Of a stretch of DNA of 64,000 nt, positions 2,034 through 39,502 are shown one piece after another (position 1 is the first letter of the stretch; every line of letters begins with the position of its first letter). Below the pieces are notes generated by a model. That model saw only the letters and a list, made by a program, of their open reading frames with translations. It ran no database searches and had not been told where the DNA came from. A program made the position numbers and the translations under genes. The stretch covers positions 34,040,001 to 34,104,000 of the forward strand of contig CM097885.1 in NCBI GenBank assembly GCA_044892525.1, given 5' to 3'. This stretch comes from Schmidtea polychroa. Taxonomy: Eukaryota.

Positions 2034-3773
2034 TTATTTGACTGTTGATTGTACCTTTGACTTTGGAGGCCTACCACGTTTTTTGGTGGTTAGTTGGGTA
2101 TTATTCTGAGAGGTATTTTGACACAGTTTTCTTGAATTGGTCCTGGTTGAACTTCCAATGCCTTCTTTGCTAATGTTGGTCGACCTCTTTTTCGTTTTTC
2201 CCCAATCGGAACAGTTTTTACCAATTTTGTGATTATGACAAGTTTAAGTCTAGCCGCAATTCCAATTATATGCTTGCAGATGTAATTCTTTTGATAGGAT
2301 GGACAGGAACATCTTGGTTCTTCCCAATTTGTTTCACTAGCATCAGTACGAAACTCAGCACACTAATTTGAAAAAAAAATTTGTAATACTCATCAAAGGA
2401 CAGGGATGAACAATTTGTTCCTCCACATTATTTTTTGATTTGTATTTTTGTGATCTGTGTTGTTACTCTTCTGCTTTTGAAGAAGTACTGATTAGATCCT
2501 GGAAGTTCTTTTTTAGTTATGGTTGGCGATTTTAGCCATTTGTTAGCAGAAGTAAAGGCAGATTTGGTTACTGTTGGCTTTCTCGAAAAAATCTTTGGAT
2601 GATTTGCTGATGTAGGATCTCGTATGAGTGACCAGTTTTCAGCAATTTCAAGTGTTGTTTTTAAGAATTCTGACATTTGCATTCTGTTCCGAAAAGTTGA
2701 TTCTTTTTTTAGAGTGCTGGTAATGGACTCTAGGCCCTTATTTGTGGAAGGACTTTATTCCAAATAGCCTTCATACTATCCAACATGCTTGAGGAGACAT
2801 TCACTGGAGAAATATATAACAAATTTCATTATATTTACATTCACATCATTTTTATAATTCTGAATAAAAGGATTGGTGGCTGATTTGAACTGTTTCTCAG
2901 AAATAGCTAGTTGAAGTACATCAATATCCTTTAGAATGGAATCTTGTAGGGTTTTGTCGCCAAGAATAAACAAGTGATTTACAACTGCTTTCTTCATGTG
3001 AAACCAGCACATGCGGCGTATGCAGTCATTTCCACTTGAAAAAACTGATTTGAATCCATTTGTTATGGCAATAGCAGTTGCTTCAAGTCCTACTTGCAGG
3101 CTTTCAAACATGAATTAAATATCTTCTTGTTTTTCATTTGTGTACACTGGAATTCCAAATGGATGAAACACTTTATCCATATCACTGATGCCGCAAATAA
3201 GGATAGGAAAATCGCTCCAAATTAGTTTGTAAGTGCTTTCTGCATGAATCTTAGTCTTCTGAAATGGTTGCATATTTCTCGAGAAGAGTGACTAACTCAC
3301 CAAAAGTTAGTGATTTTGAATTTGACCCTTTTAAAGTTAGAAGAAAGTTAAAAATTTGTCTATCATTGGAATTTCAATTTCAGCTTGTAAAAACTTCTCT
3401 TTAAACAAATTCTGGCTGAGGAGCTTTAGCTTCTTGGTTCCAAGTTGTAACAACTTTTTGATGGATTCCTTTGTTTCTGAATTAATCCCTCTTTTGGTTT
3501 GGTTTTCTAAGATTTCGTCATGACTGTTATTGCAGGTGGTTTCAAAGTCGATAACACCAAGATTGTCACTATTTTATTGACGTTTCATGACTTGACTACA
3601 TTGTGGTCCCCTTTTCCTGACAAGATTAAAACAGTACAACTCTTTGCGTCCATCTCTGGTGTCATATGCTTTATCAAATAACTGAATTGCATCCCAATTT
3701 TTAAATAATTTGGGTTTTTTTTGGCAACAGGTTTAGTGTCTGAGTCTGAAATATCTTCATCAGAATGATATTG
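2034..3773 (-). pseudogene. MULE transposase with SWIM zinc finger and AT-hooks, disrupted by stops and frameshifts; N-terminus displaced to 15556-15594
   Basis: Minus-strand translation gives HAESTYKL...HPFG, AITNGF...RMCWFH, STNKGLES, SWIM CSCPSYQKNYICKH and AT-hooks KRKRGRP and KKRGRPPK. Confidence 0.88.
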
Positions 3774-3864
3774 AGTAGTAGGATGTGAGCTCCCCAGACC
3801 ATGTCCCCTCCAGATCACATATACCCCCTCCCCCCCCCCGGGAAAAAATTTTTTTTTTTTTTTT

Positions 3865-4740
3865 TAGAACGATGCCTAATATTTTTAGAACTATTACGTA
3901 ATCAATGCCTAATATTTTTAGAACGATGCCTAATATTTTTAGAACTATTACGTAATTTTTTTTAAATTAAGTGATCCAGCGGGGACCTACTTTTTTTCTT
4001 CCCAAAAGTAATGTTCCCGCCAACAAATTTTATTAACCGATACCTCATCTTAAAGCTCAGTCCAAGACCTTTCGAATGAGCTATAGGTATCTTATATATC
4101 TTTAATAGTTTTAATGTTATTAACAATTGATGACCACCATCTTTTCAACGTTAAATTATTATTATTTTTCAAAATATTATTAAGTGATCCAGCGGGGACC
4201 TACTTTTTTTCATCCCAAAAATTATTGTTCCCGCCAACATATTATATTGATCGATAGCTTATTTTAAAGCTCTGTGCAAGAACTTTCTAATGAGATATAG
4301 ATTTTTATCATACGATGACTCATCACATTTTTAGAACAAAGACAATGACTCATCACATTTTTAAATCGATGCCTAATATTTTTAGAACGATGCCTAATAT
4401 TTTTAGAACTATTACGTAATCGATGTCTAATATTTTTAGAACGATGCCAAATATTTTTAGAACGATGCCTAATATTTTTAGAACGATTACGTCATACTTT
4501 TAGAACGATGTCTAATATTTTTAGAACGATGCCTAATATTTTTAGAATGATGTCTAATATTTTAGAATGATGCCTAATATTTTTAGAATGATTACATCAT
4601 AATTTTAGAACGATGCCTAATATTTTTAGAACGATGCCTAATATTTTTAGAATGATTACGTCATACTTTTAGAACGATGCCTAATATTTTTAGAATGATT
4701 ACGTCATACTTTTAGAACGATGCCTAATATTTTTAGAACT
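3865..4740 (+). repeat. Subterminal 21-bp tandem arrays (TTAGAACGATGCCTAATATTT) plus two 213-bp-spaced direct repeats, left arm
   Basis: Arrays at ~3865-3950 and ~4330-4740; TTAAGTGATCCAGCGGGGACCTAC at 3967 and 4180; mirrored at ~13855-14170, ~14690-15010 and ~15375-15465. Confidence 0.92.
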
Positions 4741-4902
4741 AATAATTTTGTTTTAATTATCGATTATATAATAATTTAATTTTGTTTAAATCGTTGATTA
4801 TATAATTTGTTTAAATCATTGATTATATAATTTTTGTTTTAATTATCGAATACGTAATAATATAATTTGTTTAAATCGTTGATTACATATGTTATTTTCA
4901 AA

Positions 4903-4953
<51 letters not shown>

Positions 4954-5358
4954 TGCAATTATTCATAAAACTTAATTTCTACATCAATTTAATGATTTTC
5001 AACATTTTCATCATTTGCATTTTTTAATAATTATCAATATTTTCATAATTTTCTACATTTTCAATATTTTCACGATTTTCAACATTTTCATGATTATTTC
5101 AGGAACTTTTACATCAAATATTGTTCAAAGTATTATTTTCAAAGAATTATTTTCAAAGTTTTAATCAATATTATTATTATTATTAATATTATTATTATGA
5201 TTATTATTATATATACTCCTAGTCTATCCGACAAGATATTCTGTCCCCCTAAGGGTAATGGTCACAAAGGTACTACTCACATTCAACAAGTTGCAATGGT
5301 ACTGCTCACACTCAATATGTCGTAAATTATTATTATTATTATTTCAAATACAAGTTCA

Positions 5359-5455
<97 letters not shown>

Positions 5456-5817
5456 TATTATTACGCGCACGGGGAATATTATTATCATATATACTCTTAA
5501 TCTATCCGACAAAATATTCTATCCCTTTATGGGTATTGCTCATATGGGTTATGGTCAAAGGTGTACTACTCACATTCAACATGTCTCAAAGGTTATAATA
5601 TAATTATTATTAAATTCTGACCAACTTAAATCAATGAAGGGGTAGAACAAAAATATATTAAGTTGCGGTATTTTAAATTTAAAAATATTTTAAAAACTTA
5701 TTTTGACACTTAAGTTTACTTAATTAACAAAGACATAATTATTGCACATGCTTTGCATAAATATTATTATTTTTTAAATTTTCAATATTTTCTTTTAAAG
5801 TATTAACACGCGCGGGA

Positions 5818-5871
<54 letters not shown>

Positions 5872-5874
5872 GTT

Positions 5875-6375
5875 AATGAAAAATCTAAAATATGGTTTAC
5901 ACACACACAACCCCTCAACCATTATTATTATTATCAGTATTAACAACCTAAAATATTTTCTACACACACACACAACCCATTAACCATTATTATTATCATT
6001 ATTAGTGAAAACCTAAAATATTTTTTACACACACACACAACCCATTAACCATTATTATTATTATCAATATTAAAAACCTAAAATATTTTTACACACACAC
6101 ATACAACTCATTAAACTTATTATTATTATTATTATTATTGCAAATATTAGTCAAAAACCTAAAATATTATTTACACTCACACAACCATTAACCATTATTA
6201 TTATCATTATTAGTGAAAACCTAAAATATTTTCTACACACACACACACAACCCATTAACCATTATTATTATTGCAAATATTAGTCAAAAACATAAAAACA
6301 CTCATAAACCATTATTATTATCAATATTCGTGAAAACCTCAAATATTTTTTACACGCATATACAACCCATTAAAC

Positions 6376-6428
<53 letters not shown>

Positions 6429-6545
6429 CAATATTAAAAACCTAAAATATTTTTACACACACACACACAACCCATTAACAATTATTTGTAACAATATTCG
6501 TGAAAACCTCAAATATTTTTTACACCCATATACAATCCATTAAAC

Positions 6546-6612
<67 letters not shown>

Positions 6613-6640
6613 GTGAAAAAACCTTAAATAATTTTTACAC
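5875..6640 (+). repeat. ~60-bp compound minisatellite (AACCTAAAATATTTT-(AC)n-AACCCATTAACC-(ATT)n)
   Basis: About a dozen degenerate units; mirrored at ~12390-13020. Confidence 0.9.
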
Positions 6641-9419
6641 ACTAAGTTATGGGGTAGAGTATTATTATGTTTGCAGTATTCTGTGTTTGCCTTTACAGGA
6701 AGTTGTCAATAAGGAGCGATAATTTTACACACACATTCTATATACACATACCTTGTTTAACATGGGTGTATATACTCCTAGTTTATCCGACAAAATATTC
6801 TGTCCCCCTATGGGTATTGCTAGCAAGGGTACTGGTCACATTCAACATGTCGCAAGGGTATATTAATTAAGGTTAGTAAATAAAACTTATCACACACACA
6901 ATTTAAACGATAAAAATCAAGACAAGAGAGGACAAGGCAAAGTTTATGCATTTATTATTGCCAGGCCTAATGAGCAGTGACCAAATATCTGTGCCTGAAA
7001 GACACGGTGGATATTTGTTCGCGTCCACAAGGGTCGTCTGTGCCTTCCCCAAGTGGGGTCAGAAGAACCTGGGCATTATAGCTTTCCGTACGGAACATTA
7101 CGCCTAGCATGGGTAGTCAACTACCAGCACATTCGAAACGTATAATTTCAAAATACATGCGTCATTGGCACTATAACCAAATTAATTAATGTTTTCACTA
7201 ACACAAATATATATTTACAGAGGCCTCCCACTAGTTGGATTACAACCACCCACCACGACGATCAGCTTGTAAATATATATTAATTAAGGGATAAAGAGGA
7301 CCCACCCAACCCTATTATATTTAATTTACAAATTTTTCTCGCTCTTCTGCTGGTATTCTATCTCAAAATTAATCTCTCCATCAGGCCATTTGATAGTGAT
7401 TTCATGGAATACATCTTGCAAATTGGACGTATTTCTTAGTTTCTGATGCGGCGTCCACTATCATTGCTAAAATTTATATTGATTTAAAAGCAATTAACTT
7501 ACATTATCTAACATTTTATCGTCACAGGCTTGATAAATTAGGCAACTGTTATTTGTGGTATACTTTTCAATGACATTTCCCACCATAAAACACAGATACC
7601 TAAATATAATATATTTATTTTAAAGAATTAATTCATGTCTTACATTAATAATAATATTCTTCAGGTAGTACTTTACAATATCTAATTGTTAAAACATCGG
7701 TTTTCCCATTTTTCTTGACATTCGTTGAAAGTTTACATAATTTAAGTCTGATAATTCATGTTGAAGGACACCTACAATCAGCTAATTCATTTAAAAAATC
7801 CAGAACATAACTCCTTTAGTGTTTCACCATTTAGTTCATCTTCCTCATAATCATATAATTCATGTTTTAATAAGAAATCTCTAAATCTAAAAACTATAAC
7901 TCCTTTAATGTTTCACCATTTTGTCTGGTTCATTTTCTTCTATAATTCATGTTTTAATAAGAAATCTCTAAATCCAGAACATAAGTCATTTAGTGTTTCA
8001 CCATTTTGTTCATCTTCTTCATAATTATATAATTCATTTTCTTCATTACTAAGTAAAATAATTAAAATATTTTAGTAAATTCTTTATTTACTTACTTTAT
8101 GGATACTAAAACGAAAGAAATAAAGTTATATCAAAAGTATATTTAAATAAATTAAATTTAAATAATTTAATTTAGTTATTTAAAAATATTTAAACAATTT
8201 AGTTATTTAAGCATATTTAAACATTAATATTATTATATAGTATAATTTTATATAATATTATAATTTTATGTACACTTATATATCCTTCATTTAATTTTTT
8301 AAATTCAAAATTTATAATGAAGATTCTTTGAATTAAAAAATATTATGTTAGTATTTCCAGGCAGTAAACAACGAATTCAATAATTAAAATCTTAATTTTC
8401 ATGTTGTTAGGGTTATGGCCAGAATTTAATCGCCATCTAATCGTTTGTTCTCAATTTCGCTCATTTTTGTTCAAAACATTCAGGTGAGTTGTTATCTGGA
8501 AAGTTTCTTTGAGCTCAGTTTTGTTAAAACACTCACAGTATTTTTGAGGGACGTGACACTGGGAATAAATTAACAATGGGTGGTCTTGCATACATGTTGT
8601 TGGTTTGAACTGTTGATTTATTTTAGAAATATGTATATTAAAAACATTTAAGGTATCATTCAGTAAAATAATATAGTATTTTTGAGTATTTTTAGTTGAT
8701 TTATAAATAACAGTATTTTGATATATCAATAAAGACCATATACTCCTAGTTTATCCGACAAAATATTCTGTCCCCCTATGTGTATTGCTAGCAAGGGTAC
8801 TGGTCACACTCAACATGTCGCAATATTAATCATTTAGAAATTCTTAGGTAAGATAATCAGAAATTTGTGAATATTTTAAATGTAACTTTACACTTATGTC
8901 GAGCGACTAATTTATTGGTTAACTTTTTAGACATTTAAAGCAAAAGGTAATTTATTCATCTAATGTTCGTTACAATAGATAATAATGAGAAAAACATGGT
9001 CATTATTCATTGATAATTTTAAATTCTTTATCATTTGGAGTAAATTTGTTTGAGGCAAAAATATTTAAAGGAGTCATAATAGAAATATGGTTATCATTTA
9101 ACCAAATAAGGTGCTTATTAGTTAAAAATATATATTTATATAGGGTTACAATTCTTTTCTAATTTAATTAGATGATCATTAGACGTAATATATCTTTGCG
9201 AGAAATTTAAGATGTTTGAGTAACCAAAACATTGATATTTTGGGTCATCAATTTATGAATAGTGCTTAATTTTCTCATTTTTAGTGATTTAAAATAATAT
9301 TTAGCAAAGGTAATTTGGCAAAATATCACTTATCCATCCGATAACAATATTCCTTCAATAGATTAACTGATATTCAACCGATTTAATTTCTAATTAAAAT
9401 CATAAAATTCCTTCAATAA

Positions 9420-9612
9420 TGATCAATTTACTTGGTTTTCACAATGAAATATTTGAAATCTTTAGAATTAATTGGGATTGATATCAAAGGTTATTGCTTT
9501 AAATTATTTTACTTAAGAAGTTATTTTATTCATTGTGGGGACATCAGTGACAAAACTTGAGAAATATTGACTTAAAAGTTGGAAATCGACAACGGCTAAA
9601 GAAAATTGATCT
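9420..9612. other. Spacer/loop of the giant palindrome (axis at 9516)
   Basis: Paired positions sum to 19032 (mirrored ORFs 8451-8729/10303-10581 and 6667-6870/12162-12365); perfect pairing stops at 9419/9613. Confidence 0.95.
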
Positions 9613-10983
9613 TTATTGAAGGAATTTTATGATTTTAATTAGAAATTAAATCGGTTGAATATCAGTTAATCTATTGAAGGAATATTGTTATCGGATGGAT
9701 AAGTGATATTTTGCCAAATTACCTTTGCTAAATATTATTTTAAATCACTAAAAATGAGAAAATTAAGCACTATTCATAAATTGATGACCCAAAATATCAA
9801 TGTTTTGGTTACTCAAACATCTTAAATTTCTCGCAAAGATATATTACGTCTAATGATCATCTAATTAAATTAGAAAAGAATTGTAACCCTATATAAATAT
9901 ATATTTTTAACTAATAAGCACCTTATTTGGTTAAATGATAACCATATTTCTATTATGACTCCTTTAAATATTTTTGCCTCAAACAAATTTACTCCAAATG
10001 ATAAAGAATTTAAAATTATCAATGAATAATGACCATGTTTTTCTCATTATTATCTATTGTAACGAACATTAGATGAATAAATTACCTTTTGCTTTAAATG
10101 TCTAAAAAGTTAACCAATAAATTAGTCGCTCGACATAAGTGTAAAGTTACATTTAAAATATTCACAAATTTCTGATTATCTTACCTAAGAATTTCTAAAT
10201 GATTAATATTGCGACATGTTGAGTGTGACCAGTACCCTTGCTAGCAATACACATAGGGGGACAGAATATTTTGTCGGATAAACTAGGAGTATATGGTCTT
10301 TATTGATATATCAAAATACTGTTATTTATAAATCAACTAAAAATACTCAAAAATACTATATTATTTTACTGAATGATACCTTAAATGTTTTTAATATACA
10401 TATTTCTAAAATAAATCAACAGTTCAAACCAACAACATGTATGCAAGACCACCCATTGTTAATTTATTCCCAGTGTCACGTCCCTCAAAAATACTGTGAG
10501 TGTTTTAACAAAACTGAGCTCAAAGAAACTTTCCAGATAACAACTCACCTGAATGTTTTGAACAAAAATGAGCGAAATTGAGAACAAACGATTAGATGGC
10601 GATTAAATTCTGGCCATAACCCTAACAACATGAAAATTAAGATTTTAATTATTGAATTCGTTGTTTACTGCCTGGAAATACTAACATAATATTTTTTAAT
10701 TCAAAGAATCTTCATTATAAATTTTGAATTTAAAAAATTAAATGAAGGATATATAAGTGTACATAAAATTATAATATTATATAAAATTATACTATATAAT
10801 AATATTAATGTTTAAATATGCTTAAATAACTAAATTGTTTAAATATTTTTAAATAACTAAATTAAATTATTTAAATTTAATTTATTTAAATATACTTTTG
10901 ATATAACTTTATTTCTTTCGTTTTAGTATCCATAAAGTAAGTAAATAAAGAATTTACTAAAATATTTTAATTATTTTACTTAG

Positions 10984-11706
10984 TAATGAAGAAAATGAAT
11001 TATATAATTATGAAGAAGATGAACAAAATGGTGAAACACTAAATGACTTATGTTTTGGATTTAGAGATTTCTTATTAAAACATGAATTATAGAAGAAAAT
11101 GAACCAGACAAAATGGTGAAACATTAAAGGAGTTATAGTTTTTAGATTTAGAGATTTCTTATTAAAACATGAATTATATGATTATGAGGAAGATGAACTA
11201 AATGGTGAAACACTAAAGGAGTTATGTTCTGGATTTTTTAAATGAATTAGCTGATTGTAGGTGTCCTTCAACATGAATTATCAGACTTAAATTATGTAAA
11301 CTTTCAACGAATGTCAAGAAAAATGGGAAAACCGATGTTTTAACAATTAGATATTGTAAAGTACTACCTGAAGAATATTATTATTAATGTAAGACATGAA
11401 TTAATTCTTTAAAATAAATATATTATATTTAGGTATCTGTGTTTTATGGTGGGAAATGTCATTGAAAAGTATACCACAAATAACAGTTGCCTAATTTATC
11501 AAGCCTGTGACGATAAAATGTTAGATAATGTAAGTTAATTGCTTTTAAATCAATATAAATTTTAGCAATGATAGTTGACACCGCATCAGAAACTAAGAAA
11601 TACGTCCAATTTGCAAGATGTATTCCATGAAATCACTATCAAATGGCCTGATGGAGAGATTAATTTTGAGATAGATTACCAACAGAAGAGCGAGAAAAAT
11701 TTGTAA
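10984..11706 (+). pseudogene. Possible decayed spliced gene of unknown function inside the palindrome arm (mirror copy at ~7326-8048, minus)
   Basis: Three short GTAAG...TAG intron-like AT-rich segments separate coding-like stretches (ELYDYEEDELNGETLKELC repeats, YLCFMVGNVIEK..., TPHQKLRNTSNLQDVFHEITIKWPDG); in-frame stops present. Confidence 0.35.
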
Positions 11707-12441
11707 ATTAAATATAATAGGGTTGGGTGGGTCCTCTTTATCCCTTAATTAATATATATTTACAAGCTTATCGTCGTGGTGGGCGGTTGTAATCCAACTA
11801 GTGGGAGGCCTCTGTAAATATATATTTGTGTTAGTGAAAACATTAATTAATTTGGTTATAGTGCCAATGACGCATGTATTTTGAAATTATACGTTTCGAA
11901 TGTGCTGGTAGTTGACTACCCATGCTAGGCGTAATGTTCCATACGGAAAACTATAATGCCCAGGTTCTTCTGACCCCACTTGGGGGAGGCACAGACGACC
12001 CTTGTGGACGCGAACAAATATCCACCGTGTCTTTCAGGCACAGATATTTGGTCACTGCTCATTAGGCCTGGCAATACTAAATGCATACACTTTGCCTTGT
12101 CCTCTCTTGTCTTGATTTTTATCGTTTAAATAGTGTGTGTGATAAGTTTTATTTACTAACCCTAATTAATATACCCTTGCGACATGTTGAGTGTGACCAG
12201 TACCTTTGTGAGCAATACCCATAGGGGGACAGAATATTTTGTCGGATAAACTAGGAGTATATACACCCATGTTAAACAATGTATGTGTATATAGAATGTA
12301 TGTATAAAATTATCGCTCCATATTGACAACTTCCTGTAAAGGCAAACACAGAATACTGCAAACATAATAATACTCTACCCCATAACTTAGTGTGTAAAAA
12401 TTATTTAAGGTTTTTTCACTAATAATAATAATAATTATAAT

Positions 12442-12513
<72 letters not shown>

Positions 12514-13020
12514 GTTTAATGGGTTGTATATGTGTGTAAAAAATATTTGAGGTTTTCACGAATATTGATAATAATAATGGTTTATGAGTGTTTTTATGTT
12601 TTTGACTAATATTTGCAATAATAATAATGGTTAATGGGTTGTGTGTGTGTGTGTAGAAAATATTTTAGGTTTTTAATATTGATAATAATAATTGTTAATG
12701 GGTTGTGTGAGTGTAAATAATATTTTAGATTTTTGACTAATATTTGCAATAATAATAATAATAATAATAAGTTTAATGAGTTGTGTGTGTGTGTGTAAAA
12801 ATATTTTAGGTTTTTAATATTGATAATAATAATAATAATGGTTAATGGGTTGTGTGTGTGTGTAAACCATATTTTAGATTTTCACTAATAATGATAATAA
12901 TAATGGTTGAGGGGTTGTGTGTGTGTGTGTGTAGAAAATATTTTAGGTTTTTAATATTGATAATAATAATAATGGTTGAGGGGTTGTGTGTGTAAACCAT
13001 ATTTTAGATTTTTCATTAAC

Positions 13021-13075
<55 letters not shown>

Positions 13076-13442
13076 CCCGCGCGTGTTAATACTTTAAAAG
13101 AAAATATTGAAAATTTAAAAAATAATAATATTTATGCAAAGCATGTGCAATAATTATGTCTTTGTTAATTAAGTAAACTTTAGTGTCAAAATACGTTTTT
13201 AAAATATATTTAAATTTTAAAATACCGCAACGTAATATATTTTGTTCTACCCCTTCATTGATTTAAGTTGGTCGGAATTTAATAATAATTATATTATACC
13301 CTTTGAGACATGTTGAATGTGAGAAGTACCCTTGTAACCATTACCTATGTAAGCAGTACACATAGGGGGGCAGAATATCTTGTCGTATAGACTCGGTGTA
13401 TATATGATAATAATATTCCCGGTGCGCGTAATAATAATAATA

Positions 13443-13509
<67 letters not shown>

Positions 13510-13675
13510 TGAACTTGTATTTGAAATAATAATAATAATAATTTACGACATATTGAGTGTGAGCAGTACCCTTGTGACTTGTTGAATGTGAGTAGTACAT
13601 TTGTGAGCAGTACCCATAGAGGGACAGAATATTTTGTCGGATAGACTAGGAGTATATAATATTAATAATTATAAT

Positions 13676-13738
<63 letters not shown>

Positions 13739-14474
13739 CAACGATTTAAACAAAATTATATTATTACGTATTCGATAATTAAAACAAAAAAATATATATA
13801 ATCAATGATTTAAACAAAATTATATAATCATCGATAATTAAAACAAAATTATTAATTCTAAAAATATTAGGCATCGTTCTAAAAGTATGACGTAATCATT
13901 CTAAAAATATTAGGCATCATTCTAAAAATATTAGGCATCGATTACGTAATAGTTCTAAAAATATTAGGCATCGTTCTAAAAATATGATGAGTCATTCTAA
14001 AAATATTAGGCATCGTTCTAAAAATAATAGAGATCGTTCTAAAATTATGATGTAATCGTTCTAAAAATATTAGGCATCGTTCTAAAAGTATTAGGCATCG
14101 ATTACGTAATAGTTCTAAAAATATTAGGCATCGTTCTAAAAATGTGATGAGTCATTGTCTTTGTTCTAAAAATGTGATGAGTCATCGTATGATAAAAATC
14201 TATATCTCATTAGAAAGTTCTTGCACAGAGCTTTAAAATAAGCTATCGATCAATATAATATGTTGGTGGGAACAACAATTTTTGGGATGAAAAAAAGTAG
14301 GTCACCGCTGGACCAATTAATAATATTTAGAATTTAGAAAGTTTTGTCTTGAATATATTTACCAGTAGCTTTGTGAGCAGTACCCTTGTGACTTGTTGAG
14401 TGTGAGTAGTACATTTGTGTGCAGTACCCATAGGGGGACAGAATATTTTGTCGGATAGACTCTGTGTATATATG

Positions 14475-14552
<78 letters not shown>

Positions 14553-15555
14553 CTTAGAAAATAATAATATGTAATCAACGATTTAAACAAAATTATATTA
14601 TTACGTATTCTATAATTAAAACAGAAGAATTATATAATCAATGATTTAAACAAATTATATAATCATCGATAATTAAAACAAAATTATTAATTCTAAAAAT
14701 AATAGGCATCGTTCTAAAATTATGACGTAATCATTCTAAAAATATTAGGCATCATTCTAAAAATAATAGACATCGTTCTAAAATTATGACGTAATCATTC
14801 TAAAAATATTAGGCATCATTCTAAAATATTAGACATCGTTCTAAAATTATGACGTAATCATTCTAAAAATATTAGGCATCATTCTAAAATATTAGACATC
14901 ATTCTAAAAATAATAGACATCGTTCTAAAAATATTTGGCATCATTCTAAAATATTAGACATCATTCTAAAAATGTGATGAGTCATTGTCTTTGTTCTAAA
15001 AATGTGATGAGTCATCGTATGATAAAAATCTATATCTCATTAGAAAGTTCTTGCACAGAGCTTTAAAATAAGCTATCGATCAATATAATATGTTGGCGGG
15101 AACAATAATTTTTGGGATGAAAAAAAGTAGGTCCCCGCTGGATCACTTAATAATATTTTGAAAAATAATAATAATTTAACGTTGAAAAGATGGTGGTCAT
15201 CAATTGTTAATAACATTAAAACTATTAAAGTTATATAAGATACCTATAGCTCATTCGAAAGGTCTTGGACTGAGCTTGAAGATGAGGTATCGGTTAATAA
15301 AATTTGTTGGTGGGAACATTACTTTTGGGAAGAAAAAAAGTAGGTCCCCGCTGGATCACTTAATTTAAAAAAAAATTACGTAATAGTTCTAAAAATATTA
15401 GGCATCGTTCTAAAAATATTAGGCATTGATTACGTAATAGTTCTAAAAATATTAGGCATCGTTCTAAAAAAAAAAATAAAATTTTTTCCCGGGGGGGGGA
15501 GGGGGTATATGTGATCTGGAGGGGACATGGTCTGGGGAGCTCACATCCTACTACT

Positions 15556-15594
15556 ATATTGGTCCAATTCCTGGAATTCACTGCTGTTGTTCAT
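15556..15594 (-). pseudogene. N-terminal 13 codons of the MULE transposase (MNNSSEFQELDQY)
   Basis: Joins in frame to HSDEDISDSDTKPVAKK at 3767 once the insertion and one TSD copy are removed. Confidence 0.85.
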
Positions 15595-19770: not shown

Positions 19771-22064
19771 CACCTATCCCCCGATTTACACGGTACTTGT
19801 TTTACACGTTTTCGCTTTTACACGGTTTTTCAAATAAGTTTTTTTGTTTTTATCGCACTCTACTAAATGCTACTGTGTTTGAACACGTGCGCTGTGTACA
19901 CATCTCACGGGGAATCCCGAGCTTATGTGCTGACTTGCTGCACATGCACACTGTGTCTGTATTTCTTCGCATAAAATTAAAGTTTTAAAGTTTAAAGTGA
20001 GTGTATAATTTAGATTACATATTATAAATTAACATAAATTAAAAAAAATTATAGGCTTATAATGTCGAAAGAAGTTAAAAGAAAAGTTATTTCTTTAGAA
20101 ACTAAAATCGAAATTTTGGATCGCTTACGAAAGGGAGATAGAGTAGTAGATGTTGCAAAATCATATAGCATGAACGAAGCTACAATAAGAACTATTAGAA
20201 CAAATGAAAATACAATTAGAAAGAGTGTTGCAGCTGGAAATACCACGAGTATTGGCACAACATCATACACCAGAAATATCGCAATGGAAAAAATGCTTTT
20301 TTGGATAGAAGATCAAACACAAAAAAGAGTACCCATTGATACGGCCGCTATAACAAATAAAGCAGTACGAATTTATGAAAAAATTGTAGAGCAATTACCA
20401 TCTTCTTCTTCAACTGAAAAGAAGCCAAATTTTTTGGCAAATCATGGCTGGTTTGAAAGATTTAAAATAAGACATTTTTTACACAGCTTAAAATTAAAAG
20501 GTGAACTGGCTTCTGGCGACGTAGATGCAGCCCATGAATATCCAGCAAATTTTGGAGAAATTATTAACGACAATTCATACACCCCTGATCAGGTTTCAAT
20601 GCTGATGAGTCAGGGTTATTCTGGAAAAAAATGCCTGAAAGGACTTATGTCTCAAAATTTTATAAATCAGCTAGTGGTCATAAAGCAGCAAAAGATCGCA
20701 TAACAGTTCTTTTCTGTAGCAATGCTTCAGGAGATTATATTATAAAACCATTAATGATTAACAAATCAAAAATGACCGTGCCTTTAAAGGAGTAAACATC
20801 AAAAATCTTCCCGTTTATTGGAGGGCTAATAAGAAAGCGTGGGTTACTGCTGCAATGTTTACTGAATGGTTTCATGAATGTTTTATCCCAGATGCCAAAA
20901 AATATTTAGGTTCAAAGGGATTGCCTTTTAAAGTGCTTTTGTTAATTGACAATGCGCCGGGTCACCCACAAGATCTAGAATATGAGAACGTTGAAGTAAA
21001 ATTTTTACCAAAAAATACAACTTCATTATTACAACCATTGGACCAAGGCATAATTTCTACATAAAACGAGCCTTTACATATATTTTGGAACAAATGGAGA
21101 AAAATGAATCTTTAACAGTTATTAGTGCTTGGAAAGATTTTACAATATTAGACTGTGTGAAGCATATCGCCTTATCATACACTGCGATTAAGCAAACAAC
21201 GCTCAATAGCTGTTGGAAAAAATTGTGGCCAAATGTAGTCAAAAATGAACATTCCATTTCAAGGTTAAATGATGAATATTCGCAGATAGTACAGATGGCG
21301 CATTCATTGGGCGGAGAAGGTTTTGATGATTTTACTGATGATGATATCGCAGAGTTAATGGCTGATAAAGAACTAAGTGAGGATGATTTAGTTAACTTAG
21401 TTTGCGAAAGTGAGTCTGAAAAATCTGATGAAGAGGAATTAGTACCAGTAACATTCACTGCTAAAGTCATCCGCGAAGGACTCGCATTGGGAAGAAAGCT
21501 GGGTAATCATTTTATACAAAATGACACAAACGTAGAAAGGGCTTTACGATTCCAACGTGACATAAATCGCTGCTTGGCTCAATATGGAGAAGTTTACAAA
21601 GATCTTACAAAAAATTCGAAGCAATTGTTAATAACCGATTTTATTACCACCTCTCAGAATGTAAATATTTCTGCTTCAAACATCGAATCGGCACAAATAA
21701 CTTCGAGTGATGAAAATGAATTCCAACCTTCGATTCCGAAAAAGAGAATGAGAGTAATTTCTGATAGTGATGAAGGATAATAAAACACCATTGGTTTTAT
21801 TTTTTGTTCTTCTGTTTAATGTATTGTAATTAAATAAAAAACAGTGTTTCCATAATATATTACATATTTTAACCTGTCAATGCATTTTATTTTTATGTCT
21901 GTGTACACCTAAAAATATTGAAAAAAATCACAACTGTTAAATAGCAAAATTATGCATTTTCTGCAAGCTTTTCGATTTACACGGTTTTGACTTGAAAATT
22001 TTTAATTTTCGATGTACACGTTTTTCTCAGGAACGTATCTACCGTGTAAATCGGGGGATAGGTG
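19771..22064 (+). mobile_element. pogo/Tigger DNA transposon, full length
   Basis: Perfect 25-bp TIRs CACCTATCCCCCGATTTACACGGTA, TA on both flanks, subterminal TTTACACG repeats. Confidence 0.96.
20062..21780 (+). pseudogene. Tigger-type transposase (CENP-B-like HTH plus DDE_1), split by frameshifts
   Basis: [26 protein letters not shown] and [17 protein letters not shown] spread over three ORFs. Confidence 0.93.
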
Positions 22065-22517: not shown

Positions 22518-23834
22518 TTATAATGTCAATTTATCATTACTAATTATTCGAGATCTCTCTTTCATGCTGCAAGTCACGGACGTCACACCTTTCTGACAAT
22601 AAGGTTCTGAAAATTTCCCCACTTGACTAACGCAAGCAGGACAGGTGCTAGTATTTTTCACCGTGAGTCCCATAGGATAAAAATTTAGATTTTCTGTTGG
22701 AATATATTCAACATGAAATATAGTTCTAGTAAAATCATTGAAAACTCTCCTGATAGATTCCCGAATAGGATCATTCATCCATCCGTACAGTAACGGATTA
22801 ATGCAAGCCGAAAACAATGCTACTAATTTTAAGATAAGATCAACGAGAATAGTATGAGGACCAAGGAGCAAATTTGGTTCTTTAAAAATTGGAATATATT
22901 TACAGCTTGACGTATTTTGAGACATATTGGCATTAATAGCTTCATTGAAATCTGCGCTGGATATTTTCAAAAAAGCTATTATTTCTAAAATCAAAGAAAA
23001 TAAACACCATGGAGACCAACACATTCCAAAGCATATTACAACTCCGGCAAGTAATCTATTAGTTCTTTCTTTTCGTTCAATATCCCGCTTCATCGATGTT
23101 CTTCTTTGCAAACAACAATAAATCTTCCTATAAAGAATACCTGATACTAGAAGAGGAATGAAAAATTGTCCAAAAAATGTAAAAATCGAATAAATTAATC
23201 GAAGGTTTTTATTAGGCCACTTTTCCATGCAATAAATAAAAGATGCCGATTTTGAGACAGGACTATTTTGTGTAAACATTGCAACAGGTATAATACTTAT
23301 ACTACTGTAGGAGAACACCAGTAAAATCTCGCAAAATGCTCTTCTTTTTGTAATTCTCTTTTTGAATGGATAAAGAATCACTTTGTACCTATCAATTGAT
23401 ATTAGCATAATAAGTAAACTACTCACATAAATAGGAACTCCGAAACAGCTGAAAAGAAATTTACAGGCCCAATCAGGAATCTTTTTCAAACGATTCAAAA
23501 CATAAAATATCTGAATCGGACTGTTGATACCACAAAGAATAATATCCGACAATGTTAAACTCAGTACAAACAAATTGGTGACATTCGAAAGAACTCTACA
23601 TCGACAAAGAGCAACAAAAACAATCACATTTATTAAAAGACCAATTAAAGTCACCAAAGAATACGCAAAGATCATAAAATATTGCACCCAATTAAGTCTA
23701 TAAGACGCATATTCAGGGCGATTGAAAATTTCCAAGATTTTCATTTGAAAAATTGATTGTCCGGAATGAAAATTTGATAAATTGGATCCGCAAATGTTGA
23801 ATTTGCAACAAACATATTTATTGAAACCCTCCAT
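22518..23834 (-). CDS. Rhodopsin-family neuropeptide GPCR, NPY/NPF-receptor-like, single exon, 438 aa
   Basis: Seven hydrophobic segments; VTNLFVLSLTLSD, SIDRY, CMEKWP, CWSP and NPLLYGWMN motifs; uninterrupted ORF. Confidence 0.93.
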   Translation of the reverse strand: MEGFNKYVCCKFNICGSNLSNFHSGQSIFQMKILEIFNRPEYASYRLNWVQYFMIFAYSLVTLIGLLINVIVFVALCRCRVLSNVTNLFVLSLTLSDIILCGINSPIQIFYVLNRLKKIPDWACKFLFSCFGVPIYVSSLLIMLISIDRYKVILYPFKKRITKRRAFCEILLVFSYSSISIIPVAMFTQNSPVSKSASFIYCMEKWPNKNLRLIYSIFTFFGQFFIPLLVSGILYRKIYCCLQRRTSMKRDIERKERTNRLLAGVVICFGMCWSPWCLFSLILEIIAFLKISSADFNEAINANMSQNTSSCKYIPIFKEPNLLLGPHTILVDLILKLVALFSACINPLLYGWMNDPIRESIRRVFNDFTRTIFHVEYIPTENLNFYPMGLTVKNTSTCPACVSQVGKFSEPYCQKGVTSVTCSMKERSRIISNDKLTL

Positions 23835-24020
23835 ATTTTTTTAGTCTGTTATAATTATTAAATCTGAATATTTTGTTAAAAAATCTGAATATTTTCCTCT
23901 AACTTTCATTGGCTGATATTGAAAATTGAAAATTTTAATTTATGACAGTAATTAAACTGCAAATTTTCGAAGCGCTAATTTTCATTTTTCCATTATCTCA
24001 TATTACTTTCTTGTTTTGAT

Positions 24021-27000
24021 TAGGGTTGTTAAACGAAAATCGGAAATCCGATTTTCGATTTTGAAAACGATTATCGGTTTCTTTATTTCACAAAACGATA
24101 ATCGGTTTTGTTTGTCTTTTACATATTATACAGATAAATTGAATGCCGGGAATTTAATTTTGTTCATTGTTTACTACTGTATCCATTCAATTTTACCGAC
24201 AGAAAGGGGCAGTTTTTTTCAACTCGTCAAAACTCCTTACAACGTGTTTGTACATGAGTCAATCTTTTCAATTATCCCATTCCTGTAACAACGGCAAGAG
24301 GTTGCTCTAGTATTCCAACATATCTCACCGACTGACCAGTTATTTGTCAGTTGATGTCCGTAATCGGCAACCGCTGATTTGTTTTATACAGCCCCTGACA
24401 GGTACTGTGCCCATTAAATCTTTTAATCGGGACCAGCTGAGGCCAAGGTTGTGGTTGTGTGTTTTAGTATTTGCATTTTGCCGGTTTTGTTTGGCAACCT
24501 GATATTTGTTGCCGAAATCGGCCACCAAAGATTTGATTACTGCAGTCCATAACAGAAGCTTAGCTATTAACCCCCTTGACAGGGACTAGATGTGACCGAG
24601 GTCGGCGATTTTGTGTTTAGTCCGTGAAGGTCTATTTTGCAATCTGATATCTTGCATCTGCGAACCGGTTAAAAGTTTATTCTGGTTTTAACTTAAAACC
24701 AGAATAAACTGAATTGCATACCGCATCATCTTCATGAAAGCCAGATGTAAAGAGATCGAAAGACATGTGCCATTCCTCGAATCATAATGTTTGGTTGTTT
24801 ACCCATTGAAATATGGAAGAGAGTTGGACACTAGGACAAACTTCAAGTTTGGGTGACGACCATTGTCAAATTTATTCAGTTTGTTGATCTTTTGACAATG
24901 TCTAAGAGGCTGCTCAGGTCGAAGTAAATTGATTTTCGGGATTTTAATTTATGACAAGATTTTGGAAAGTCCAATCCATGGTTCAAATCTACTATAAACA
25001 TATAAACTGTTATATAATTTCCATTCATTCAGTTAGTTGCTCTTGTAGTAGCTGTTATTAATCCATATAATTGAAAATTGCGGTTTAGTTTGAATATTAC
25101 GTAATATTCAATAAACATTTTTTATATTATCTAAATCAATACAAAATCAGTTTAAATTTATGGGTTTCCGTTTAAATAAGTCTGACGTCTGGGACAATTT
25201 TGATAAAATTTCGGCGACGATGGCACAATGTAAGCTCTGTGCACAGCAAATAAGTAGGAGTGGAGGTACTACGACTGGTTTGCATGCACATTTGCGTAGC
25301 AAACGTGGTGGATTAACAACATCTTCAAATACTCAAACACGATTGACTGCATTGATTACAACACAAAGAAATTGTCCGAGTAGTAAACAGGAAAAAATTA
25401 CGGCTGCTGTTGCGAGATTGATTTCCGAAAATATGTTGGCAATTTCGCTCGTGGAATCGAAATCCTTCCGTGAATTGATGGCGATAGTGGAGCCAGGATA
25501 TCGTCCTCCGTGTCGTCAGACGATGACAGCACGACTAACAGCAATGAAAAATAATTTAGTGGTCAAAATGTCGAAATATATCCATGAAAATGTCAAGGAC
25601 ATTGCGATCACTACCGACATCTGGACTAGTGTCACCAATGAAGCTTATCTCAGTTTTACTGCAAGCTACATTGATACAGACTGGAATATGATGACGCCTG
25701 TTCTTGGAACAATTCTGATGACTCAACGCCACACACAAGCCGTCATTGCTGACCATCTATGTAGTATAGCTGATGAATGGTCAATAATAGAAAAAATTGT
25801 TGCATGTGTCCATGATGGTGCATCCAACATCAATCATGCAGGCAATCTCAATGGATGGTTTGACGTTCACTGTGCGGCGCATAAATTGCAACTTTGCATC
25901 AATAATGCAATGGGCTCCCATGTTGTCACGGATCATCAAATTTCCAAATGTATATCAGCTGCAGCACGACTAGTCGGACATTTCTCACATAGCCCAATGG
26001 CAACGGGGGAGCTCCTGAAAAGACAGTTGTCCATGGACAAGGATAAAACGCCACTAAAACTTATTCAGCACTGTAAGACTCGTTGGAACAGCGTCTATGA
26101 CATGTTTGAACGACTAGTAGAACTGAGATGGCCAGTAGTTGCAGTATTGAGCGACAAAAACGTGGTGAAATTGAACGATGCCAAAACGTTGGGTATGAAG
26201 GACGATTATTGGCAACTGATGACTGAATTGCTCCCTGTTTTAAAAGCGTTGCAGATCGTGACGTCCGTCATGTCAGCCGAAAGCCAGCCATCAGCCTCTT
26301 GTGTTTTTCCCATGTTATGGGGACTCGTGAAAAATCATTTAACCATTAAAGAAGAAGATTCTGACATTATGGGTGAATTTAAGAGAGATCTTGCTAAGAA
26401 TATTTCACGTCGTTTTGGATTAGAAAATAATGAAACAGCAAAAAACGAATGCGTTGTTGCATCAATTCTCGATCCGATGTATAAGCATCTTCCTGGATTT
26501 CCGGACGATTTCAAAAAGCTGGCGTATGAAAATGTCCGTCATCTCATCAGACAGCTGCCAGATTGCCCCGAACAGCCGAAGACGAGTCGGGATGAAGATA
26601 ACATGATCCCACCAACTAAAAGATCACGACCAAATCATGATGCAGTTATGTTTCTCCTTGGTGATAGTGCAGCACAACAGGCGCCAGAGGAATCCGACTT
26701 TGAATATTACGTCAAATCATCATGGTCGACAAACTCAAGTGAAACAGCCCTGGAGTGGTGGAAACATAATATGAAACTTTTCCCCAAAACAGCTATTCTT
26801 GCCCGGAAGTTCTTATGCATTCCTGCAACCTCAGTGCAATCGGAACGATTATTTTCGGCCACTGGACGTCTGATAACCAAGCTTCGTAACCGGCTCCTTC
26901 CAGATCATGCAGAATCTTTGGTCTTTTTGAATATGAACCAGGACTTGTCTGATATTTAAAAATAAAATCGAATTTAGTACTTACTTTTAAATGTTTACAC

Positions 27001-39104: not shown

Positions 39105-39150
39105 AATAAATAATTTATTGAAATTGCTTTATTTTTTTGAGTTATTTTTA

Positions 39151-39502
39151 TGTGATTAAAGAAATGCAAAAATGTGATTATAGAAATGAAAACATGTGAT
39201 TATAGAAATGAAAACATGTGATTATAGAAATGAAAACATGTGATTATAGAAATGAAAACATGTGATTATAGAAATGAAAACATGTGATTATAGAAATGAA
39301 AACATGTGATTATAGAAATGAAAACATGTGATTATAGAAATGCAAAAATGTGATTAAAGAAATGCAAAAATGTGATTATAAAAATGAAAACATGTGATTA
39401 TAGAAATGCAAAAATGTGATTATAGAAATGAAAACATGTGATTATAGAAATGAAAACATGTGATTATAGAAATGCAAAAATGTGATTATAGAAATGCAAA
39501 AC
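39151..39502 (+). repeat. 16 x 22-bp tandem array of the TIR-internal motif
   Basis: Unit TGTGATTATAGAAATG(A/C)AAA(C/A)A with an exact period of 22; the last copy forms part of the right TIR. Confidence 0.96.

Follow-up and report, generated by a model that had tools for sequence, protein, structure and literature searches.

Non-autonomous derivatives of Polinton/Maverick elements keep the cis-acting ends of a coding partner and have lost its mobility genes, and the replication cycle of Polintons themselves (an excised strand, a panhandle, protein priming, possibly a virion) is still a model. Foldback elements of the MULE type have a longer target-site duplication (TSD), and undersized adenovirus vectors form palindromic dimers. 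Polintons end in (AGT)2 or (AG)3 motifs (PMC8097293) and are described with 5'-(AGT)2//(ACT)2-3' ends, a 6-bp TSD and terminal inverted repeats (TIRs) of 46-1,447 bp, intact vertebrate Mavericks measuring 16.9 +/- 1.7 kb (PMC8097293, bioRxiv 2023.08.22.554363); in C. elegans strains, a TIR and pPolB occur without integrase at 10 loci (bioRxiv 2024.01.15.575659). The foldback elements Drosophila FB and Galileo are characterized in PMC3573991 by long modular inverted arms, inner tandem repeats, a variable centre and chimeric copies, the arms being longest where a copy does not code. Snap-back defective viral genomes (PMC13506859) and helper-dependent satellites combine a near-full palindrome with one type of end and dependence on a helper.

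Here we analyse an element of Schmidtea polychroa that resembles each of these systems in part. It lies in a window of 64,000 nt (GCA_044892525.1, CM097885.1:34,040,001-34,104,000), to whose forward strand all coordinates refer. Its ends, its TSD and its total size near that of intact vertebrate Mavericks are those of a Polinton, but it lacks pPolB, integrase, ATPase, protease and capsid genes, and its inverted arms measure 5.7-6 kb (~7 kb in the parental form), compared with the TIR lengths given above (PMC8097293, bioRxiv 2023.08.22.554363). Like other non-autonomous derivatives it has the ends of a coding partner without mobility genes; it differs in being no internal deletion of that partner, having instead a foreign interior that is itself mirror-duplicated. 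With foldback elements it shares long modular inverted repeats, inner tandem repeats, a variable centre, chimeric copies and greatest arm length in copies that do not code, whereas Galileo, as described in PMC3573991, belongs to the P superfamily and has a 7-bp TSD and TIRs of up to ~1.26 kb, against a Polinton partner, a 6-bp TSD and arms ~5 times longer here. Unlike snap-back viral genomes it sits in the chromosome between TSD copies, is passed on in hundreds of copies, and has an arm of mostly non-helper sequence. The first-pass annotation had recognised no described class with this architecture: the literature searched, which leaves aside the founding Polinton papers, indeed holds no description of it, although foldback elements, snap-back genomes and non-autonomous derivatives with TIRs each represent a known kind. 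We favour, with a probability of roughly 60%, the reading that it is a satellite dependent on a helper, a Polinton/Maverick family resident in the same genome, and is amplified via a hairpin intermediate.

Ends, arms and gene content

The element starts with AGTAGTAG at 3774 and ends with CTACTACT at 15555, carries the (AGT)2 end motif and is flanked on the + strand by exact 6-bp copies of ATATTG at 3768-3773 and 15556-15561, as the first-pass annotation had read them. The TSD length and the Polinton partner set it apart from foldback elements with a P-type transposase and a 7-bp TSD. The insertion site is a decayed SWIM-finger (MULE-like) gene on the - strand (2090-3773), whose first 13 codons lie across the element at 15556-15594. 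Read from the right flank, its frame crosses the duplicated six bases and enters the left flank in register, which independently backs the element boundaries.

Self-comparison revealed a left palindrome arm at 3774-9433 (+) and a right arm at 9599-15555 (-). Perfect pairing runs for 1,442 bases outward from 9419/9613, and imperfect pairing extends inward as far as 9433/9599, leaving a spacer of 165-193 bp. Counting inverted alignments of more than 1 kb, 10,638 of the 11,782 element bases are paired (90%), a nearly complete self-complementarity, and the arms lie outside the Polinton TIR range of ~50-1,500 bp. At this locus, the reported architecture of reverse-complement arms around a spacer of less than 200 bp is therefore correct.

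The two arms are not equal throughout. Mismatches number 4/575 at 3774-4350, 6/220 at 5600-5820 and 21/817 at 6640-7456 (+), and fall to 1/1,963 across the inner arm (7457-9419, +; mirror 9613-11575). The outer segment at 6640-7456 has different family haplotypes in the two arms: for 18 of its 21 differences, both alleles occur in other copies. Differences in arm length are found at 5819-6640 (+; mirror ~12390-13073), a stretch of TTA microsatellites and a 65/130-bp minisatellite, and a 190-bp block at 4960-5150 (+), present only in the left arm, is a family variant found also in copies L019 and L030. The right arm contains ~750 extra bases, with 14372-15162 directly repeated at 13558-14332 (-) as a second, partial TIR copy. 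The copy at 3774-15555 is a mosaic of family haplotypes.

Nine copies of a ~90-bp motif are spread over both arms, the first at 5210-5310 (+), with cores at 5225, 5503, 6784 and 8752 (+) and at 10280, 12248, 13389, 13643 and 14457 (-). A 33-base pattern of this motif has 12,487 matches genome-wide (control, 0); the coding Polinton carries one motif per TIR, at the inner end. As DNA, the motif folds weakly (-4.1 kcal/mol). A further fragment at 7222-7266 (-; mirror 11766-11810, +) resembles the 5' Alu domain of SRP (7SL) RNA at 27.1 bits (Rfam RF00017, E 0.00037), a value that does not reach the gathering score of 70, and folds no better than shuffled sequences (z -0.17).

No Polinton gene was found in the element. 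Ten Polinton loci of the same genome supplied 49 reading frames for tblastn searches, none of which matched the element, and the frames of the putative helper matched solely through a translated non-coding TIR motif. Among 27 frames of at least 38 aa from 6621-9620 and eight from the parental centre, none exceeded the Pfam cut-off, with three weak matches at E 0.011-0.04. Across these searches neither pPolB and retroviral-like integrase genes nor packaging ATPase, protease and capsid genes were detected, in agreement with the earlier report of an element devoid of pPolB, integrase, ATPase and capsid ORFs. A 99-aa stop-to-stop frame at 8454-8750, open in two other copies, was considered as a gene and rejected: it lacks both an early ATG and a match in Pfam.

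A coding Polinton with the same ends

By sampling the centres of 16-17-kb end pairs, we identified in the same genome a 16-kb Polinton family with a TIR of ~1.3 kb and genes for an A32 ATPase, an rve+chromo integrase, an adenain and pPolB. Its capsid frame was named by fold alone, as Pfam, PHROGs and PDB sequence searches left it unnamed: the model of a 97% identical protein, P0001, adopts a double jelly-roll (pLDDT 91.5; best PDB match E 7.7e-18). The helper integrase is present at 99-100% identity in 40/40 of the matches listed. The first 49/49 bases of the element end are identical to the helper TIR, and in the next 530 bases 525 are identical with two mismatches (525/527 aligned). A helper-type TIR with the (AGT)2 terminus, a C-run and sub-terminal 21-bp and 25-30-bp repeats forms the left end (3774-4953, +), without the innermost ~300 bp of the helper TIR, and a complete one forms the right end (14319-15555, -), where the match to the coding Polinton continues up to the last base of the TIR and then diverges. 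The expected autonomous, pPolB- and integrase-coding Polinton with these termini thus exists, the termini did not prove to belong genome-wide to a non-Polinton superfamily, and the element is non-autonomous in the sense first proposed: no Polinton gene of its own, with the ends of a coding family. Based on the ends shared with this coding Polinton and on many insertions with the helper's TSD length, the helper integrase very probably excises and inserts the element.

The helper TIR accounts only for the outer ~1.2 kb of each arm, and the remaining 4.5-5.7 kb have no credible match to the helper interior, so the initial description of the element as nearly all TIR does not hold. The same observation bears on the proposal that it is a defective genome formed by direct snap-back of an end of the present helper. 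Such molecules are present for another Polinton family in this genome, and an inverted pair of helper integrases is listed at C2:77652451/77666624. Against this, beyond the ~1.3-kb TIR neither DNA nor protein of the helper interior credibly matches the arms or the parental centre, the lone match being AT-rich (125 bp, 70%, E 3e-4), and the arms contain satellites, repeated TIR motifs and the SRP-like fragment. Because helper TIR is limited to the outer ~1.2 kb, the whole arm does not come from one helper end, and the idea that this end snapped back is rejected; this origin is largely refuted for the present helper and improbable overall. The kind of mechanism stays plausible, because true snap-back coding Polintons occur elsewhere in the genome.

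Those molecules came to light among other pPolB loci. Ends were read for four pPolB inverted pairs, and all four are flanked by Polinton TIRs and 6-bp TSDs; one turns round within the pPolB frame, and one has no integrase frame in the parts read. Polintons therefore fold back, and gene-deficient palindromic molecules are inserted in the genome. Compared by eye, none of the 91 pPolB places listed falls inside a listed end pair. Two further pPolB families, L031/L034 and L047/L048, were rejected as helper, with related but different ends and no further TIR match; over 80 bases of end alignment, L046 scored 34.5 (shuffle maximum, 11) and L047 scored -1.0, a value reached by 10/1,000 shuffles.

The family across the genome and the central deletion of this copy

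Family ends number 1,239/1,234 genome-wide with coding and mini copies counted, and copy numbers are rough estimates. In the first 20.3 Mb of C1, family ends enclose 2.4% of the sequence if coding and nested copies are counted. The end pairs there number 43: 23 span 12-17.6 kb, a class that includes coding copies, and 17 are shorter than 10 kb, 11 of these below 2 kb. End pairs of 30-32 kb are satellites with other elements nested inside (16 probes of 501 bp, two pairs). Every one of 15 end pairs tested has its own exact 6-bp TSD, and 10 contain satellite sequence, in line with the prediction that other copies would have different TSDs. The terminal pattern has no match in IMG/VR.

Palindromes are difficult to sequence and assemble, and one locus, L005/L068, has an extra inner end flanked by the inverted left flank, which could be an artefact. 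It is nevertheless very improbable that the element stems from a collapsed repeat or from a long read that is chimeric and folded back. The inversion ends exactly at the termini, within a direct 6-bp TSD and an interrupted frame that stays in register, the arms are told apart by indels and by alleles that other copies also carry, one centre is common to different loci, and the 15 TSDs are each their own.

Comparison with other copies reveals how the centre arose. The spacer (9434-9598, +) has two inverted copies in most other family members, and 12 of 14 spacer pairs have the same centre spacing of 3.2-3.5 kb. At 9417-9433 (+) a deletion junction coincides with a 15/17 direct match between two parental arms. 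The copy at 3774-15555 derives from a parent of ~14.6 kb, with a 695-bp centre and arms of ~7 kb, by a private central deletion of 3,283 bp, unique to it among the 40 copies scored. The short spacer is a one-sided, unpaired remnant of the parental right arm and not a family trait, and the annotation's inclusion of it in the general architecture does not stand. The centre has been revised repeatedly: in this copy slippage at a short direct match deleted part of it, and in another copy it folded back at a short inverted repeat.

Arms within a copy are far more alike than copies are to each other. In seven other copies the arms differ at 0, 0, 0, 1, 0, 0 and 0 of 841 bases, whereas the same copies differ from one another at 10-29 (mean 20.6, ~2.4%). 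Equalisation is incomplete, because the arms at 3774-15555 match in the inner 2 kb but not beyond it, and one of four other end pairs differs at 11/600 terminal bases. Family copies exchange sequence. Of 406 site pairs, 222 are incompatible, which may also stem from recurrent mutation, since incompatibility does not rise with distance (p 0.17).

Equal arms can alternatively come from chromosomal gene conversion or be inflated by assembly. In the fuller form of the former, the element is of the foldback type, moved by the Polinton integrase through cut-and-paste only, with arms extended and equalised in the chromosome by break repair and gene conversion. Galileo TIRs extend and its copies become chimeric by such repair (PMC3573991), and conversion tracts formed after insertion would leave the TSD intact, the inner 2 kb equal and the outer arms mosaic, as in this copy. 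The central deletion, unique among the 40 copies scored, implies that some revision does happen in place. However, the compared arm segments are equal in 7/7 copies despite lying 6-8 kb apart, and the common centre spacing in 12/14 pairs indicates that the long palindrome multiplied as a unit. Galileo TIRs reach at most ~1.26 kb in PMC3573991, hundreds of copies require a copying step, and the pPolB palindromes with TSDs point to a replication cycle. We consider this chromosomal route unlikely, though it is the strongest competitor to a replicating satellite.

A possible replication cycle

The protein-primed polymerase of the helper may amplify the dependent satellite extrachromosomally, a step of which we are less sure than of integration. 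A displaced single strand of the palindrome would snap back to a hairpin, whose single double-stranded end could serve as the origin; the (AGT)2 ends permit jumping-back initiation in protein-primed replication, according to PMC8097293. One arm copied on the other, by template switch or end repair, would yield equal arms prior to insertion, and mosaics like the copy at 3774-15555 could arise when a strand anneals to one from another copy or to a helper TIR. More speculatively, the doubled ~7-kb unit would reach the helper genome size and enter the helper capsid, an idea weakened because 17/43 pairs are shorter than 10 kb and the 12-17.6-kb class includes coding copies.

Tentatively, and with the odds against it, such elements might form a widespread, so far undescribed class of integrated polintovirus satellites in which the palindrome is functional: the helper would supply the polymerase that copies it, the capsid that packages it and the integrase that inserts it, and a ~7-kb non-coding unit would be doubled so that both displaced strands can fold into an origin and the molecule attains the helper's packaging size. 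If true, the genome would house a three-tier system of helper, replicase-bearing defective (the pPolB-only palindromes) and gene-less satellite. Together, a high-copy coding family, some hundreds of dependent palindromes that share its TIR, and the pPolB-only palindromes offer natural markers for the Polinton replication cycle. They bear on which cis sequences suffice (~1.2 kb of TIR with the inner motif), on whether the arms become equal prior to insertion and on whether the capsid sets size. Near-perfect palindromes of 12-15 kb can make up roughly 1-2% of an animal genome, an abundance relevant to genome stability, repeat annotation and assembly.

Among the matches listed in sequencing archives, no RNA run contains the stretch. 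The stretch or part of it is present in 20 of the 24 runs listed, and the four runs with at least half of its words belong to one study, possibly the source.

Boundaries and ends of the palindromic element

The element at window positions 3774-15555 opens with AGTAGTAG at 3774 and closes with CTACTACT at 15555, and ATATTG lies directly outside both ends as an exact 6-bp TSD. It splits a decayed SWIM-finger gene whose reading frame keeps its register across the 6 duplicated bases, and this fixes the boundaries. The halves are reverse complements, with 10,638 of 11,782 bases within inverted alignments longer than 1 kb. Starting at 9419/9613, the arms (3774-9433 and 9599-15555) pair perfectly over the next 1,442 bases outwards and imperfectly inwards to 9433/9599, with 165-193 bases unpaired. 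They differ in length, the right arm having ~750 extra bases and the left a 190-bp block. Both the palindrome around a spacer of under 200 bp and the duplication were described correctly in the first-pass annotation, as was the lack of coding genes: our search of the element found no Polinton gene or remnant. The arms contain micro- and minisatellites and a 45-base piece resembling the 5' Alu domain of SRP RNA; this match (E 0.00037) falls short of the gathering score, and the piece folds no better than shuffled sequences.

Sampling the centres of 16.0- and 16.8-kb end pairs (left plus right terminus of one copy) with the element's exact ends revealed the genes of a coding ~16-kb Polinton family, hereafter the helper; the ends of two pPolB families considered earlier are only related. 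Pieces read from the 16.0-kb copy hold frames encoding a TBP-like protein, A32 ATPase, rve+chromo integrase, adenain and pPolB, besides a conserved ~407-aa frame. A 97% identical database relative of this last frame is modeled with a double jelly-roll capsid fold (pLDDT 91.5) that matches iridovirus, PBCV-1, mavirus and Sputnik capsids (best E 7.7e-18). Helper integrase DNA gave 40 of 40 matches at 99-100% identity among those listed, 3 of them inside the 27 end pairs from the exact-end search.

The helper TIR is ~1.3 kb long. Its first 49 bases equal those of our element, and the next 530 show 525 identities and 2 mismatches to the element's left end; the right end tracks the TIR to its last base, where a second partial TIR begins. 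A ~90-bp motif occurs once per helper TIR, at the inner end, and nine times in this element; its 33-base pattern has 12,487 genome matches, and our guess is a promoter, packaging or origin element. Beyond the TIR, the helper has no credible match to the arms. The expected autonomous Polinton with the same ends, pPolB and integrase therefore exists, and the proposal of a non-autonomous element with Polinton ends holds, but its derivation by snap-back of the helper's own end fails on the unmatched helper interior. The element is real and has firm ties to a coding Polinton. It is not an autonomous Polinton itself, nor simply the helper's end snapped back; it appears to work like a satellite or defective dependant and, judging by ends, TIR and TSD, very probably depends on the helper's integrase.

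In match listings from the searched genome (G000), helper integrase and a lone match to the satellite spacer lie 5-6 kb apart on contig C1 (57048654 and 57054420; 31263715 and 31268534), possibly as helper-satellite chimeras or nesting. An inverted pair of helper integrases at C2:77652451 and 77666624 is a possible helper snap-back. Coding Polintons with TBP-like genes also occur at L046:2672-3127 and 3788-4255 and at L124:2299-2775 (loci read from G000), one of them with a Bcl-2-like frame.

Family size and insertion scars

Across 781 Mb, the exact first 24 bases of the element occur 60 times forward and 58 times in reverse, and a degenerate 17-base end pattern 1,239 and 1,234 times on the two strands (0 in each control), counts that pool the gene-less satellite with coding and mini copies. 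Among the 30 ends nearest to this element's, 7 run into coding helper and 8 into satellite sequence, the other 15 (2 being this element's own) being of undecided class within the 1.7 kb compared. The first 100 listed ends, spanning 20.3 Mb of C1, resolve into 43 end pairs and 14 single ends; pair lengths are <2 kb (11), 6-9 kb (6), 12-17.6 kb (23) and >27 kb (3). From the 2,238 and 1,151 first-look candidates for inner-arm probes, we estimate roughly 500-1,100 satellite copies.

As predicted from the sequence of this copy, others carry TSDs of their own: in all 15 independent end pairs read the 6-bp TSD is exact and no two are alike; one lies in a TAA run and is uninformative. Ten enclose satellite sequence, three are coding copies and two are undecided. 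A sixteenth pairing, involving an extra inner end, has no TSD. At C2:136004270-136026129 (L005, L029, L068), the left flank recurs in inverted form after an extra inner end at 136019238, through either a local chromosomal fold-back or an assembly artefact. Five same-orientation ends with a period of ~2.45 kb form a tandem array of a terminal segment at C1:266246044-266255877 (L026, L030). A more distant palindromic relative adjoins another Polinton at L047:1121-6410 (65-80% to the parental centre, described below), suggesting that the satellite type has older subfamilies.

Revised centres and equalised arms

The spacer of this copy matches elsewhere in the genome: of its 39 further best matches, 28 fall into 14 inverted pairs (12 spaced 3.2-3.5 kb) and 11 are single. 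In two copies with paired spacers (14.6 and 14.7 kb), the arms extend 1.2 kb further and share a 695-bp centre. Relative to this ~14.6-kb parental form, our copy fuses the left arm to the right where the two match directly at 15 of 17 positions, a level reached by 2 of 200,000 random pairs, with 3,283 bp lost; its spacer is the remainder of the parental right arm. The junction was in no other copy scored (the best 40 of 1,151 candidates), and the deletion was probably an in-place event. A third copy shows another one-sided deletion, its centre being 280 bp, while a fourth reverses direction at a short inverted repeat of the parental arm with almost no loop. With four kinds of centre among five copies read, the centre has been repeatedly revised.

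Outside repeat-rich parts, arm-to-arm mismatches in this copy number 4/575 at the element ends, 6/220 at 5600-5820, 21/817 at 6640-7456 and 1/1,963 at 7457-9419. Over an 841-bp segment in seven other copies, a biased choice from the 40 best left-arm matches, the arms differ within copies by 0, 0, 0, 1, 0, 0 and 0 and between copies by 10-29 (mean 20.6). In four further copies the two inner arms are 99.5-100% equal, whereas two of these copies are 98.4% alike. Terminal 600-base arms differ at 0, 2, 2 and 11 positions in four other pairs, of which one or two may not be satellites, and at 10 in this copy by multiple alignment. Both alleles at 18 of this copy's 21 arm differences recur in the other seven copies, and at 0 of 21 are both private, so this copy combines two family haplotypes as a mosaic, its inner 2 kb being equalised. 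In the four-gamete test, 222 of 406 pairs among 29 informative sites fail, with no rise with distance (p 0.17); given this flat profile, exchange between copies is likely, and recurrent mutation may also have produced incompatible sites.

Our preferred reading, at a probability of roughly 0.6, is a helper-dependent satellite that would be copied outside the chromosome by protein-primed replication through a hairpin intermediate. A single strand of the palindrome would fold over its entire length, and the end repeats would suit jumping-back initiation, as treated for protein-primed replication in PMC8097293. In the Polinton model, as described by bioRxiv 2026.07.28.741278, an excised strand with annealed TIRs is copied by pPolB. 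The main rival is a cut-and-paste element whose arms are repaired from one another in the chromosome, the scheme that PMC3573991 gives for Galileo; it seems unlikely as the whole account, although it and hairpin replication are not mutually exclusive. The 12-17.6-kb size peak invites the speculation that doubling of the unit might serve to reach capsid size; an adenovirus result reportedly bears on this. If hairpin replication and packaging are true, the element would represent a new class of integrated viral satellites, a tentative proposal that we consider possible.

Fold-back Polintons and neighboring features

Ten of 91 listed pPolB places form five divergent inverted pairs. Ends were read for four, and all four are bounded by Polinton TIRs with a 6-bp TSD; they belong to a Polinton family other than the helper's, and each has two outward-facing pPolB copies: C1:264964907-264972309 (7.4 kb), C1:139677856-139690446 (12.6 kb), C3:32532201-32547693 (15.5 kb; L075-L081) and C1:126056156-126072149 (16.0 kb). 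The 15.5-kb arms are 98.8-99.7% equal, with no integrase frame in the parts read; the others are probably symmetric, judging by ends, centre and gene pair. The 7.4-kb palindrome turns round inside the pPolB frame, and the centre of the fifth pair is non-palindromic over the 1.2 kb read. Gene-deficient palindromic molecules are thus inserted with a Polinton scar in this genome, which requires a helper integrase.

One of the four is nested in a satellite copy. Satellite-family ends or mini copies (1-1.7 kb) lie upstream of pPolB or centrally in pPolB palindromes, with the same junction three times (L077-L079, L089, L006, L010; C1:4828642-4829786). In the C3 palindrome the flanks of these ends are inverted, not direct, as if they had primed the fold-back. 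The 5' part of an 18S rRNA gene (L072, C1:264963400-264964122) lies ~0.8 kb from one pPolB palindrome.

Non-autonomous Polintons are reportedly named in the founding Polinton papers and in the Repbase and Dfam databases. Full-text searches of a literature including PMC6431247, PMC8097293, PMC3573991, PMC7805219, PMC13506859, PMC9863843 and the preprints bioRxiv 2023.08.22.554363, 2024.01.15.575659, 2022.07.12.499685 and 2026.07.28.741278, with founding Polinton papers, Repbase/Dfam entries and supplements outside this scope, returned no description of kilobase-arm palindromic Polinton dependants. PMC3573991 mentions earlier reports of inverted-repeat expansion in Polintons.

Elsewhere in the window are a single-frame rhodopsin-family GPCR gene (22518-23840, minus strand; 7tm_1, E 3.8e-36), a hAT transposase frame with zf-BED and dimerisation domain (25115-26959, plus strand), a split Tc5/pogo-type transposase (20038-21780, plus strand) and a 22-bp tandem repeat in 16 copies (39150-39502).
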